A stretch of DNA of 21,206 nucleotides from a phage (GCA_021534775.1 GCA_021534775.1_4809.2), one strand, 5' to 3'; counted from the first letter of the stretch, positions 6,507 to 16,124 are shown. The notes: generated by a model from the letters alone, not told the origin. Numbers and translations are program-made.

Positions 6507-6579
6507 GACACTGGATAAATAATTGGTGCGGATAATCTATCGCGCCGTTTTATAGAATTAAATCTACAGTGTATACATA

Positions 6580-6610
6580 AAGCCGGAAATTCCCGGCTTT
6601 TCTTTTATTT
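6580..6610 (+). terminator. rho-independent terminator candidate
   Basis: GCCGG...CCGGC hairpin (about 6582-6597) followed by TTTTCTTTTATTT, downstream of the ligase stop. Confidence 0.45.
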
Positions 6611-7454: not shown

Positions 7455-7477
7455 AAAGGCCCATATGGGCCTTTTTC
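7455..7477. terminator. bidirectional rho-independent terminator between convergent transcription units
   Basis: Symmetric hairpin AAAGGCCC-ATAT-GGGCCTTT with an A-tract on one side and a T-tract on the other, lying exactly between the stop of the + ORF (7452) and the stop of the - strand endolysin gene (7478). Confidence 0.6.
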
Positions 7478-12673: not shown

Positions 12674-13945
12674 TCACACAAATTTAACGTTGATGAAGCC
12701 GCGCATAGTATTCGCCTTATCCCAAGGATTGGCAATCCACTCGCTGCCGTAATCGGATGGATAATTTGGCGCTGCCTGTCCGCTTTTCACTGCTGCAATT
12801 TTGCAATCTTTAATGTACAAGCCTGGATACTCGCAAGACACTGCTGAAGCAATTTCAAAAGAAGATTGAGATTGACCTACTGTATATCCTTGCTCACCGT
12901 TAAAATTGCCATTGCCGTAATTCAACACAGCGGCAATAATAGATTCCGCATCGGCGGTTGCTGTGCCTCTTGAAACAGTAATATCGACATACAAGTCATA
13001 TATTACTGCAGTGTTGAACTTCACAAAATAAGACAGTTGTGATTCTTCGTCGACAACTTCTATTCCATCAGGCGAGTTTACTGGATTGCCCTGATTGGTT
13101 GCACCGAAGTCCCACGGCTGGCCGCCCATCTTCGCTTTGAAAATAGTCTCAGCAAAGACTTGCTTATCAAACGTTCCGCTTGCGCACACCCATACACCGT
13201 TAGGCGTTGAAAAGGTAATGCCGCGCACCGTTCCAGGTAATCCCGTGTCGTTCTCAACGACCATCACCGATTCCACGCCGTCGACCGACATGGCACGAGC
13301 GCGAATGGCACCAAGCGATGCAATGCCCTGCTGGTAAAGACGCTTAACGCGAGCGGCCTTTAATGCTCCGTCGCCCATGTATTGTGTTCCTGGCACAGTC
13401 GTCGTTGCTGATGTTGAATACGTTCTTGACCATCCGATGACGTCATAACCTTGCACCACTGTAAACTCTTCATCAGGGGCAACAGTAAATGAGCCATAAT
13501 CTTTTGATGCAAGAGTCATGTTGCTTGTCTTGCCAGTCGAAGTGATTTGAACGTCTTCAAGAACATACCAGTATGTGCCGTTTGAATCCGTCAGCAAACT
13601 TCCAGCAGGAATTTCCAACAGCGGCGTTCCTTCTGCGGTAATTCCTTTCAACATCGTGCTGATGTTTTTCGTTCGCTCAATACCAAGCAATGCCGCGATG
13701 GCATCAAGGTATACGCCATATGAATAATTAGGGTTGATGAGACTTCCCAGCTCGGCGTTGTTCTTCATGACTGAAGTTCTTGCCAAAGTCTCTGTCGCGA
13801 TTAGGGTGCCTTGCGGAGTCGATGCATCAACGTCAAGCCCGACCCCTAATGACTCAATCCATTCACTTTGAACGTCAGCCAGCAAATCGGCTGTGTCGAT
13901 GGTTATTACACCAGTGCTTACTATGTAAGAATATTGTGCACTCAT
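12674..13945 (-). CDS. tail or baseplate structural protein (423 aa)
   Basis: ORF translationally coupled (ATGA overlap) to the upstream spike gene. The role is assigned from position only. Confidence 0.45.
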   Translation of the reverse strand: MSAQYSYIVSTGVITIDTADLLADVQSEWIESLGVGLDVDASTPQGTLIATETLARTSVMKNNAELGSLINPNYSYGVYLDAIAALLGIERTKNISTMLKGITAEGTPLLEIPAGSLLTDSNGTYWYVLEDVQITSTGKTSNMTLASKDYGSFTVAPDEEFTVVQGYDVIGWSRTYSTSATTTVPGTQYMGDGALKAARVKRLYQQGIASLGAIRARAMSVDGVESVMVVENDTGLPGTVRGITFSTPNGVWVCASGTFDKQVFAETIFKAKMGGQPWDFGATNQGNPVNSPDGIEVVDEESQLSYFVKFNTAVIYDLYVDITVSRGTATADAESIIAAVLNYGNGNFNGEQGYTVGQSQSSFEIASAVSCEYPGLYIKDCKIAAVKSGQAAPNYPSDYGSEWIANPWDKANTMRGFINVKFV

Positions 13946-14670
13946 TCTATCATATCCCCAGTTCTGTTTCCAGGCCCGTTACCTATGTGACCGTGAGTGG
14001 ATACATTTGTGCCGCCGATTGTTGTGCCAGTCGGAAGCGTTGCCGTCGTTCCTTCTTTCCCTTCTATACCACCATTGAACGTTGCCTTTCCATTAACTAT
14101 CAATTGTTGGTCGATAGTGGTTATTGGTGTTTTCACATTTACTCCAGCCGATGCAGTTATGTTTATCGAGTCATCACTTAATGCAATGCGGACAGCGCCG
14201 CTGAGTGACTGGATTACCATTGAGTCTGCATCCTCTCCGCTTATGGTGTATTTTCGAAATACATCCGGTATGAACAGTCCATCAGCGAAAGTCTTCACGC
14301 GACCATTGGTAGGCGCGGTCGGCTTCAATTCTTCAAGGAATGTCGACAACTCGCGGTCGCCAGCGAATATCCAGCCCAAATCACCCTCTTTCAGAGGAAA
14401 GTTGATTACGAAGCCGCCGCCGCCGATTGCCAATACAGGAATTGACACCAAAGGTTGACGCTCCACTGGTTTATCATCAAGACTTACGAAATGAATAACA
14501 GGCTTTATGACTGCTAAATTCTGTTTGCGGTCATAAGATATTACTTGTGCAGGAATCATGCCGTCAGTGGTATACTTGCCACGGTCCAGCATTCCCTGCA
14601 GCGCGGCAAACATACTTGATTTGTCAGTTTGGTTGGGGCTTGTAAGTTGGGTTAACTTTTCTGCCATCAT
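13942..14670 (-). CDS. baseplate central spike protein (gpV / Mu gp45-like) with HxH apex
   Basis: The C-terminus ...TTIGGTNVSTHGHIGNGPGNRTGDMIE resembles the metal-binding apex of P2 gpV and Mu gp45-type spikes. The start was placed at the ATG pair at 14670/14667, preceded by AAGGAG; the track start at 14694 is a TTG. Confidence 0.6.
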   Translation of the reverse strand: MMAEKLTQLTSPNQTDKSSMFAALQGMLDRGKYTTDGMIPAQVISYDRKQNLAVIKPVIHFVSLDDKPVERQPLVSIPVLAIGGGGFVINFPLKEGDLGWIFAGDRELSTFLEELKPTAPTNGRVKTFADGLFIPDVFRKYTISGEDADSMVIQSLSGAVRIALSDDSINITASAGVNVKTPITTIDQQLIVNGKATFNGGIEGKEGTTATLPTGTTIGGTNVSTHGHIGNGPGNRTGDMIE

Positions 14671-14723
14671 AGACTCCTTATATCTGATCAACAAATTATA
14701 ATCTATAAGGAGTCTATAAGCAA
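14667..14723 (-). promoter_or_regulatory. perfect 14-bp inverted repeat bracketing a TATAAT hexamer and the ribosome-binding site of the spike gene; candidate internal promoter and operator or translational control hairpin
   Basis: The + strand reads ATAGACTCCTTATA (14669-14682) ... TATAAGGAGTCTAT (14704-14717), exact reverse complements separated by 21 nt. On the - strand the spacer contains TATAAT (14700-14695), with TTGCTT 17 nt upstream (14723-14718). The 3' arm contains the AAGGAG ribosome-binding site and abuts the ATG. Confidence 0.4.
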
Positions 14724-14727
14724 TATT

Positions 14728-15249
14728 TTAGCGATTTGACTTTGATTCTTTAATGGCAGCTTCGTTTGAGTAGGCTTCATTAAGTGATTTTGCTATTAGT
14801 CCATCAAACATAGCGAATGCATCACGCAATGAATAATATTCTTCCAATTCTTTTAACGAAGCAAGACCATTGTTTATTAGGCTTGCAACCATCGGCTCAA
14901 GATAATTAGGCTCTACGGTCGGAACGTCAGCCAAGAATCTATTTGGAATCTTAGTACCTTTCCAATCGCTGAGGAATCCAAAATTGTGCTTCTTTACCGC
15001 TTCCATTAGAACTTTCAATACAAGGTTGGGCGGCAAGTGATTTGGCACACTTTTCACTTCTTCACTTATTGCTTTCTCAGAGTTTAACCTGACTTTAGTT
15101 CCGTCATATTTGATAACATGACATTCACTTAATAATTCAAGTGGAGTTAATATGCTTATCGCATCAACCATTTCAAACGCATCTATTGCGCTGAATTGAT
15201 GTATTTCATAAGTGACTCCAAACAGATCAATTACTTTATTCTTTCTCAT
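14728..15249 (-). CDS. hypothetical tail-module protein (173 aa)
   Basis: ATG-initiated ORF immediately after the upstream gene stop. No motif recognised. Confidence 0.5.
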   Translation of the reverse strand: MRKNKVIDLFGVTYEIHQFSAIDAFEMVDAISILTPLELLSECHVIKYDGTKVRLNSEKAISEEVKSVPNHLPPNLVLKVLMEAVKKHNFGFLSDWKGTKIPNRFLADVPTVEPNYLEPMVASLINNGLASLKELEEYYSLRDAFAMFDGLIAKSLNEAYSNEAAIKESKSNR

Positions 15250-15251
15250 AT

Positions 15252-16124
15252 TTAGGCCGATGGTGCAACGCCGCCCGTCACCGTAAATATGTCATCACGA
15301 CTTGCTAAATCATATTCAAGTTGCATGATGACGAATGTGGTGTCGTTCAAGCTTGGGTTTAAGACTGATTTGAATTTCACACCTTGGGCAAGCTTCAAAT
15401 CCGCGTTATACATGCAAGTGAAGTCAGCGCCCCACTCGTTCCACATCGGTATTCCGACAAATTCCTCAATCACCGTTATCTGTTCTGGATTCAGAATTTT
15501 GTCTTTATCCTTGACGATTAGCGTATCATCATCAATATATGCCGCAATAGAGTTCCTTTGATAGTTCTGAATCTCAAGCAACAAGGCGGCTGCAACATAT
15601 GTTGTGCGGCCTGGGTTAACAAGGCGCTGATTGTTAATCGAAGTATCGCATATAACAGTATCAATATCCATTTGCTTTGCCGACCACTCCACAAACTCTT
15701 TGAATGTTGGGTTTGACGGTGCAGCTTGAGTGATAAACTTAGTCCTGTTTATCTGGTTGGTGTAGCAAGTGATGCGTATGACGATGTTCGGCGGCGGCGC
15801 TGTTATCTCAACCGTTGTGACTTGCCCCTTGTAGACTAAGTTGCTACTAACAACGTTGCCTTCTCTATATCCAGCTTCAATTGTTACGTTGACATAATTC
15901 GCCGCCAATTGGCCTTGATCACGCAGACGTTTGTTGAATGCGGTGAAGTTGGAAAGCAGGTACTCTCTCAAGTACCCTGTCAATCCTGCGACTTCGATTG
16001 TGGCCTTATTTTGCACGGAAAGTGCTGCCTTTTTGATTCGGCATCTAAGCATCAATCCTTCATCAAGCACTTGGCTTGTGCCATCCGGCATAGATAAGGT
16101 GACTTTAAGGATTCTCTTTTTCAA
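15252..16124 (-). CDS. hypothetical tail or baseplate protein (290 aa), apparent TTG start
   Basis: The first codon is TTG, preceded by GGTGA 4-5 nt upstream, 5 nt after the stop of the tape-measure-like gene. The next in-frame ATG (codon 12) lacks a ribosome-binding site. Confidence 0.5.
   Translation of the reverse strand: MKKRILKVTLSMPDGTSQVLDEGLMLRCRIKKAALSVQNKATIEVAGLTGYLREYLLSNFTAFNKRLRDQGQLAANYVNVTIEAGYREGNVVSSNLVYKGQVTTVEITAPPPNIVIRITCYTNQINRTKFITQAAPSNPTFKEFVEWSAKQMDIDTVICDTSINNQRLVNPGRTTYVAAALLLEIQNYQRNSIAAYIDDDTLIVKDKDKILNPEQITVIEEFVGIPMWNEWGADFTCMYNADLKLAQGVKFKSVLNPSLNDTTFVIMQLEYDLASRDDIFTVTGGVAPSA

Follow-up and report, generated by a model that had tools for sequence, protein, structure and literature searches.

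This analysis concerns the gap ahead of the baseplate spike gene in a stretch of phage DNA of 21,206 nucleotides (nt) (GCA_021534775.1_4809.2), which as a whole is referred to as the window. The gap holds a perfect inverted repeat that encloses the -10 hexamer of an apparent promoter and runs to the spike start codon. By its sequence the window is part of a Wifcevirus, an E. coli myovirus whose genus has genomes of ~68 kb, and over 13900-15300 it shares 99.4% identity with Escherichia virus TH32 and 98.9% with HansTraber_Bas100 (Bas100), both of that genus. Its - strand carries tail and baseplate genes. The spike protein, of 241 amino acids (aa), matches Pfam PF18352 and the Pbunavirus spike proteins in PDB entries 4ru3, 8eon, and 9b45 (E ~1e-54), and a PHROGs search returned no family for it; its assignment from these sequence matches is solid. 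Two in-frame ATGs are present at the start of the gene, at 14670 and 14667, of which the one at 14667 has the proper 6-nt spacing from the Shine-Dalgarno (SD) sequence and is the annotated start in relatives. The gap and its borders contain the following features.

15249-14728, - strand: 173-aa gene upstream of the gap (phrog_4774), with weak similarity to tail assembly chaperones
Between the 173-aa gene and the spike gene, - strand: intergenic gap of 60 nt
14718-14723, - strand: -35 hexamer TTGCTT, 17 nt upstream of TATAAT (spacer 14717-14701)
14704-14717, - strand: hairpin 5' arm AUAGACUCCUUAUA, with the anti-SD CUCCUU (14712-14707), inside the promoter spacer
14695-14700, - strand: -10 hexamer TATAAT, in the hairpin loop
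14686-14689, - strand: predicted transcription start; counted from the -10, A14688 is the 7th nt downstream, and the leader would be 21 nt
14669-14682, - strand: hairpin 3' arm UAUAAGGAGUCUAU, with the SD AAGGAG (14679-14674)
14662-14722, - strand: whole predicted read-through RNA structure, three helices, fold -26.7 kcal/mol
14667-13942, - strand: central baseplate spike gene (241 aa), first gene of a predicted internal transcription unit

The inverted repeat and the probable internal promoter

On the + strand the arms of the repeat, ATAGACTCCTTATA (14669-14682) and TATAAGGAGTCTAT (14704-14717), show 100% complementarity and are separated by 21 nt. In the 5' to 3' direction of the - strand, the gap passes from the UAA stop codon of the 173-aa gene through AAUA, the -35 hexamer UUGCUU, AUAGACUCCUUAUA, GAU, the -10 hexamer UAUAAU, UUGUUGAUCAGA, UAUAAGGAGUCUAU, and a single G to the AUG. 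The stop codon (14730-14728) lies 10 nt ahead of the core stem. This is the sole perfect inverted repeat of at least 14 nt with separated arms in the window, where the 14-mer has just two copies at up to two mismatches compared with 0.03 expected. In the close relative Bas100, the complete 68-kb genome has no further copy at fewer than two mismatches.

A preliminary description of this DNA had reported the coordinates and sequences of the arms, their exact complementarity and 21-nt separation, the TATAAT in the spacer with TTGCTT 17 nt upstream on the - strand, and the AAGGAG within a 3' arm that runs to the spike start. Each of these was found again on rereading the sequence, with AAGGAG at 14679-14674. 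Its further statement that this is the sole sizeable gap of the tail operon holds within the window, and the search it proposed for other copies of the 14-mer, made in the window and with the Bas100 genome standing in for the rest, recovered only the two arms.

It is very likely that the gap contains an internal sigma-70-type promoter. The -10 matches the consensus at six of six positions, the -35 at three of six (TTG of TTGACA), and the spacer is 17. A generic promoter scan of the window did not list the site, and the phage's own promoter form was therefore derived from the Bas100 genome, scanned in full for TTGNNN-N16-18-TATAAT-like sites. The -35 is TTGCTT or TTGCCT at 11 of the 17 intergenic promoter-like sites in this genome, including those before the portal and protease/capsid blocks as well as many early genes. 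Hence the spike site has the phage's own promoter form and an optimal 17-bp spacer. From the sequence, the Wifcevirus promoter would be expected to fire at ~14688.

The -10 also belongs to an 8-bp palindrome, ATTATAAT (14695-14702), and a perfect TATAAT is thereby present on the + strand at 14697-14702. An antisense promoter using this second hexamer was rejected, as no -35-like hexamer accompanies it. Elsewhere in Bas100 the -10 of two other promoters is enclosed by a repeat: TTCTGCTTCAATG/CATTGAAGCAGAA at 42426-42466 (L013 7426-7466), which is 13 bp and perfect, and CGTTTCGATGAGGTA/TAACTCATCGAAACG at 40228-40261 (L013 5228-5261), which is 15 nt and 93% complementary.

Predicted masking and its recurrence in related phages

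When folded as the preliminary description had proposed, the - strand RNA reaches -26.7 kcal/mol against -12.3 +/- 2.8 for shuffled sequences (z -5.1), and none of 200 shuffles equalled it. The predicted structure has ~24 bp in total, interrupted by a 2-nt bulge and a 3-nt internal loop. At its base a lower helix of 4 bp joins 14722-14719 with 14665-14662, where UGCU of the -35 pairs with GGCA, the first G of which is the G of the AUG. Above this the prediction places a core of 14-15 bp followed by an apical helix of 5 bp. With the three helices formed as predicted, both the SD and the start codon are enclosed. For read-through RNA the predicted cost of opening the 15 nt from SD to AUG is 19.8-23.4 kcal/mol, compared with 4.3-5.2 kcal/mol when the RNA starts at 14686-14689. 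Of the initiation regions at the 110 gene starts annotated in Bas100, that of the spike gene ranks first for pairing, with a mean probability of 0.88 compared with a median of 0.52. Searched against Rfam 15, the full window gave no match at gathering scores, and 14550-14850 gave none at E <= 1 either.

When more of the flanking RNA is folded, CUGCCAU (14753-14759, - strand), which belongs to the 3' end of the 173-aa gene, forms pairs with AUGGCAG (14661-14667), made up of the start codon and the next four nt. This pairing gives the hairpin an outer helix, which in the folding model would be opened by ribosomes on the upstream gene. In a separate imperfect inverted repeat, CATATTTAGGCCGATGG/CCGTCACCGTAAATATG (15247-15291, - strand), sequence around the start of the 173-aa gene is paired with the 3' end of the preceding hub gene. 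With a pairing probability of 0.85, this initiation region comes second among the 110 of Bas100 in degree of sequestration, and the hairpin has the look of a classical device for translational coupling.

The Pseudomonas Pbunavirus group is distantly related to the wifceviruses (BASEL paper), and in one of its members, phage 14-1, the start of the orthologous promoter has been mapped by ONT-cappable-seq (Putzeys et al. 2024, PMC10914365; bioRxiv 10.1101/2023.10.13.562163). The transcription start, P018, is at 28318 and its upstream sequence is listed as ...CCTGGGAAGGCTATACTAGACCTGC. It is thus 19 nt ahead of the ATG of the spike gene gp42 at 28337. P018 is classed as sigma-70, gives significant reporter expression in P. 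aeruginosa, is among the sigma-70-like promoters assayed in E. coli, and works without phage factors (Putzeys et al. 2024, PMC10914365). The corresponding transcription unit, TU018, comprises gp42-gp43, and no termination site is mapped in the 14-1 gap (Putzeys et al. 2024, bioRxiv 10.1101/2023.10.13.562163).

P018 occupies the same place as the window promoter, between gp41, the homologue of the 173-aa gene, and gp42. It has a sigma-70-type -10, TATACT, with the mapped start at the 8th nt after it. The likeness extends to the hairpin, whose 5' arm UGGGAAGGCU is upstream of the start and whose 3' arm AGGCUUUCCCA spans the SD through the AUG, so that the mapped start falls between the arms. Points of difference are an unrelated sequence, a 10-bp stem that includes a G-U pair, and another host. 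The passages of Putzeys et al. 2024 (PMC10914365) and its supplement that were consulted report the promoter and no hairpin at the P018 site, and literature searches turned up no earlier description of the spike-gap hairpin. An earlier analysis of PB1-like genomes placed promoters only before ORF18 and ORF22. At 14-1 28282-28336 (L025 2483-2537) the 5' arm CCTGGGAAGG contains CTGGG, which is given as the core of a second, phage-specific promoter motif of 14-1, P018 itself being classed as sigma-70.

The gap before the spike gene is kept in Wifcevirus, Kylevirus, Myosmarvirus, a Salmonella phage, phages of Burkholderia, Xanthomonas, and Luteibacter, Pbunavirus, and many uncultured relatives, and 34 distinct homologous gap sequences formed the comparison set. 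More distant P2-like spike loci (e.g. L072-L105), in which the genes overlap without a gap, were excluded. The gap is AT-rich, with a G+C content of 27%. Exact TATAAT is present in 21 of the 34, compared with a mean of 1.7 and a maximum of 6 in dinucleotide shuffles, and TA[TA][AC][AC]T in 30 (shuffle mean 6.7). These -10-like hexamers usually end 21-33 nt ahead of the ATG, and TTTACT, TTTACC, TTGCTT, or TTTATT is commonly found 17 nt upstream of them. The arm sequences vary by lineage while the layout stays the same, as in the following examples.

Pantoea phage Kyle: ACCTCTTACAGT/ACTGTAAGAGGT, 12 bp, with the SD in the 3' arm and the -10 in the loop
Pantoea phage PA1: ACTGCCTTAC/GTAAGGCAGT
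L035: TCTCTCCCGGTG/CACCGGGAGAGA
L041: ACTCCATGAC/GTCATGGAGT
Salmonella PCSE1: two-part helix, in which the -35 region CCUUUAUU pairs with AAUAGAGG
Myosmarvirus: CGCCAUUAUAAUAU/GUAUUAUAAUGGCG, in which the -10 itself pairs with the spacer and AUG
Pbunavirus: UGGGAAGGCU/AGGCUUUCCCA, including a G-U pair, with the mapped start between the arms

With the promoter in the same register, Kyle and PA1 are set apart by four double (compensatory) changes, which fall at spacer positions 7-10. As the arm positions differ between lineages, energy tests were used for the cross-genus comparison. For each gap the duplex energy was calculated between the segment from stop codon to predicted start and the segment from start to AUG+6, and set against shuffled controls, mismatched partners, and the antisense strand. 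On dinucleotide shuffling of the first segment z is below -2 in 20 of the 34 gaps, with a mean of -2.2. Matched pairs average -18.1 kcal/mol whereas cross-lineage mismatched pairs average -11.1 (sd 3.8). The identical test applied to 16 other Bas100 intergenic promoters centres on z = 0, compared with -5.2 at the spike site. The opening cost of the long RNA exceeds that of the short RNA by more than 5 kcal/mol in 16 of the 34 gaps, the window being the extreme at 18.7. In every case the 3' partner is the SD and/or the AUG, while the 5' partner lies on the -35, the spacer, or the -10 depending on lineage. The sense-strand duplex is the more stable in 22 gaps and the antisense in 7 (Wilcoxon p = 0.011), and at imperfect positions G-U pairs are favoured on the sense strand. 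The constant SD/AUG partner together with the sense-strand stability favours RNA pairing over a DNA operator, and the complementarity has probably been selected at the RNA level.

A proposed promoter within a masking hairpin and the competing explanations

In the proposed arrangement the spike, baseplate, tail-fibre, and endolysin genes would be served by a host-type (sigma-70) promoter embedded in a hairpin that masks the ribosome-binding site (RBS). RNA arriving from the upstream tail genes would have both arms and form the ~24-bp helix that buries the SD and AUG. On such long transcripts the spike gene should go untranslated, and the overlapping wedge gene would probably be silenced together with it. 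RNA from the internal promoter would begin in the loop at ~14688 with the 3' arm only, leaving the RBS open. As the 5' arm lies between the -35 and the -10, RNA from this promoter cannot contain it. Expression of the baseplate module would then be set by its own promoter and not by read-through, a form of translational insulation.

That promoter-initiated RNA is the only RNA translatable for the spike and its coupled baseplate genes is the account we favour as reasonably likely. The folding model suggests that the hairpin would block translation in vivo. Read-through RNA may be expected given the conservation itself and the lack of terminator-like sites; a scan found none on the - strand from the gap to 20242. 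Any physiological purpose assigned to the arrangement is a guess. The preliminary description had listed an RBS-occluding hairpin, an operator overlapping an internal promoter, and an RNase processing site as its alternatives; the predicted folds and the comparisons bear out the hairpin and the promoter together and disfavour the operator. Absent from it was the link between the two that the model proposes, namely that the promoter is inside the hairpin, so only read-through RNA would be able to fold. A broader version is put forward tentatively, as possible but somewhat doubtful: that hairpin and promoter form a conserved translational insulator which replaces a transcription terminator in PB1-like myoviruses (Wifcevirus, Kylevirus, Myosmarvirus, Pbunavirus, and uncultured relatives). 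Read-through RNA from the abundant transcripts of the sheath, tube, and tape-measure genes would be kept silent for the baseplate genes, and maybe ended by Rho as it is untranslated, with their dosage set only by the host-type promoter.

A number of points weigh against masking by an embedded promoter. The mapped start and the reporter activity belong to the 14-1 ortholog and not to a Wifcevirus. The generic scan missed the spike-gap site because TTGCTT agrees with TTGACA at only three of six positions. With a leader of ~20 nt any hairpin that spans the -10 must overlap the RBS, hence the SD overlap may in part be geometric. There is no significant complementarity in 14 of the 34 gaps, the start codons used for the metagenomic loci come from a heuristic assignment, and the lineages lack full independence. 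Within Wifcevirus the same 96 nt recur unchanged in 24 of 29 records; each of the three variants is a singleton, two with a loop change and one, phage 4M-7, with an uncompensated A to C change in the second base pair counted from the loop. This near-invariance means that there is no covariation within the genus; part of the adjoining coding sequence is equally invariant, and invariance of the gap at genus level therefore says little. The two other -10-enclosing repeats of Bas100 leave the RBS out, which the model does not explain and which may point to some further or other function of such hairpins. Finally, the genes upstream are also structural, so the early-versus-late logic of phage T4 (see below) cannot be transferred directly and the purpose has to be guessed.

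An alternative is that the repeat serves RNA processing or stability, with RNase III cutting the hairpin in read-through RNA or the hairpin acting as a 3' stabiliser after processing. Cleavage would split the tail from the baseplate mRNA and could free or destroy the RBS, and the overlap with the promoter would be mere compaction. RNase III sites consist of about two turns (>=20 bp, i.e. at least 20 bp) of mostly uninterrupted double-stranded RNA. The ~24 bp of the window structure, with small interruptions, is within this substrate size, and the 13-15-bp repeats at the two other promoters, being without an RBS, would fit a generic RNA-level role. However, in most relatives the helix is just 8-12 bp, which is short for RNase III. 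A stabiliser also needs neither a 3' arm that is always on the SD or AUG nor a 5' arm that is always upstream of the start, and no termination site is mapped in the 14-1 gap. Processing keeps a low probability. Translational coupling, in which the RBS stays closed until a ribosome finishing the 173-aa gene melts the hairpin and spike synthesis is tied to upstream translation, is a little less likely still. The stop codon is only 10 nt from the core stem, the anti-SD strand of PCSE1 and L035 begins within a few nt of the stop codon, and the neighbouring 173-aa gene bears a coupling-type hairpin of its own. Footprint and toeprint data indicate that a terminating ribosome covers ~10 nt past the stop codon. 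A ribosome at the UAA would therefore open just the lower helix of 4 bp and get no further than the base of the 14-bp core, making simple termination-coupled melting unlikely in the window phage. In Kyle and PA1, moreover, the 5' arm begins ~20 nt after the stop codon, and coupling leaves the conserved, experimentally active promoter between the arms unexplained.

The operator raised in the preliminary description would make the 14-bp arms the two half-sites bound by a regulator of phage or host origin, dimeric or tetrameric, with the internal promoter as the target of its repression or activation. A perfect palindrome does overlap the promoter, and palindromic half-sites would likewise co-vary between lineages. 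Nonetheless, the 14-mer has no other copy in the 68-kb Bas100 genome, on which ground a repeated operator was rejected, and the half-sites are 35 bp apart centre to centre. Relatives vary in arm length (8-15 bp), loop (~14-26 nt), and position relative to the -35 and -10, the sole constant being a 3' arm on the SD or AUG, while the G-U pairs favoured at imperfect positions on the sense strand also speak for RNA. Given the unique 14-mer, the variable geometry in relatives, and the better pairing of the sense strand, an operator appears improbable. Least credible is that the repeat has no function, as a chance or mutational by-product of an AT-rich gap, or that it is an intrinsic terminator. The low G+C content (27%) and the partial self-complementarity of TATAAT-like sequence would favour a by-product, but the chance expectation is ~0.03, the fold has a z of -5.1, and the recurrence of the design with different sequences in many lineages contradicts it, leaving this reading with hardly any weight. 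An intrinsic terminator was rejected, since the AT-rich stem is followed by GAUGGCAGAAAAG with no U-tract and the site is absent from the terminator scan.

Surrounding genes, wider meaning, and comparison with P2 and T4

The remaining features of the operon on the - strand are as follows.

18309-16129, - strand: tape-measure-like lytic tail protein
16124-15252, - strand: baseplate hub gene
13945-12674, - strand: wedge gene, whose start overlaps the spike stop (ATGA)
Between the wedge and endolysin genes, - strand: two large tail and fibre proteins
8122-7478, - strand: endolysin gene
7455-7474, - strand: terminator-like perfect 10+10 palindrome AAAGGCCCAT/ATGGGCCTTT, after the endolysin gene

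The palindrome at 7455-7474 sits between the endolysin gene and a convergent block of + strand genes, and is probably a bidirectional terminator that closes the spike-to-endolysin unit. Another G+C-rich terminator-like hairpin, AAAGCCGGAAA/TTCCCGGCTTT, is found at 6579-6600 of the window in a 177-nt gap after the DNA ligase gene. In Bas100, long intergenic regions at L012 6552-6967 and L013 24108-24166 contain multiple direct and inverted copies of a ACGTATCATCCGTA-type motif, one arrangement of which forms a perfect inverted repeat of 14 bp around a 31-nt spacer. These regions are candidate iterons or regulator-binding sites. At L012 10164-10278, after the major head gene of Bas100, a G+C-rich terminator hairpin is followed by TATAAATA, the T4 late-promoter motif, just before the next gene.

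Pbunavirus is among the P. aeruginosa phage groups most used in personalised therapy (BASEL paper), and the proposed masking matters for engineering these phages or reusing their promoters. If it is true, half of a regulatory hairpin is included in the 14-1 P018 fragment that serves as a promoter part, and genes inserted upstream of the spike gene would be translationally isolated from it. It would also provide a testable rule for uncoupling baseplate from tail gene dosage without a terminator. More broadly, the T4 device of a promoter within an RBS-masking hairpin would not be peculiar to T4. It would be in use with ordinary host promoters inside a structural operon, and be conserved across several genera.

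In phage P2 the late promoter P_V heads the V-W-J-I-H-G operon and depends on the activator Ogr. The likeness to the window is that the spike gene opens its own transcription unit, followed by wedge and tail-fibre genes. No RBS-masking hairpin is known at P_V.

The T4 genes e (lysozyme), soc, 49, and I-TevI are the closest known parallel in mechanism; their initiation regions are sequestered in early and middle read-through transcripts (McPheeters et al. 1986 and later work, reviewed in Uzan and Miller 2010, PMC3014915). For gene e this sequestration cuts lysozyme synthesis ~100-fold, while late promoters within the DNA encoding the 5' strand yield translatable RNA (Uzan and Miller 2010, PMC3014915). 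The window is similar in that a helix, here predicted, buries the SD and/or AUG in long transcripts from upstream promoters. Its promoter is likewise placed such that its own transcripts would lack the 5' strand, as judged from the sequence and from the 14-1 start mapped between the arms, and the layout is conserved among relatives whose sequences vary. The T4 promoters differ in being late (TATAAATA, dependent on gp55 and gp33) and in following an early-versus-late logic, whereas the window promoter is of host sigma-70 type. It does not belong to a later temporal class, as TTGCTT-N17-TATAAT is the form of the phage's other promoters and the 14-1 ortholog needs no phage factors. The controlled gene also differs, being a baseplate spike that heads a structural sub-operon with structural genes upstream as well. 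The mechanism is therefore a known one, and what is apparently new to the literature is its conservation over several phage genera including Pbunavirus. On the best reading of the predicted structure, the window holds a T4 gene e-type arrangement, sharing both the masking helix and the placement of the promoter, and not a categorically new device.

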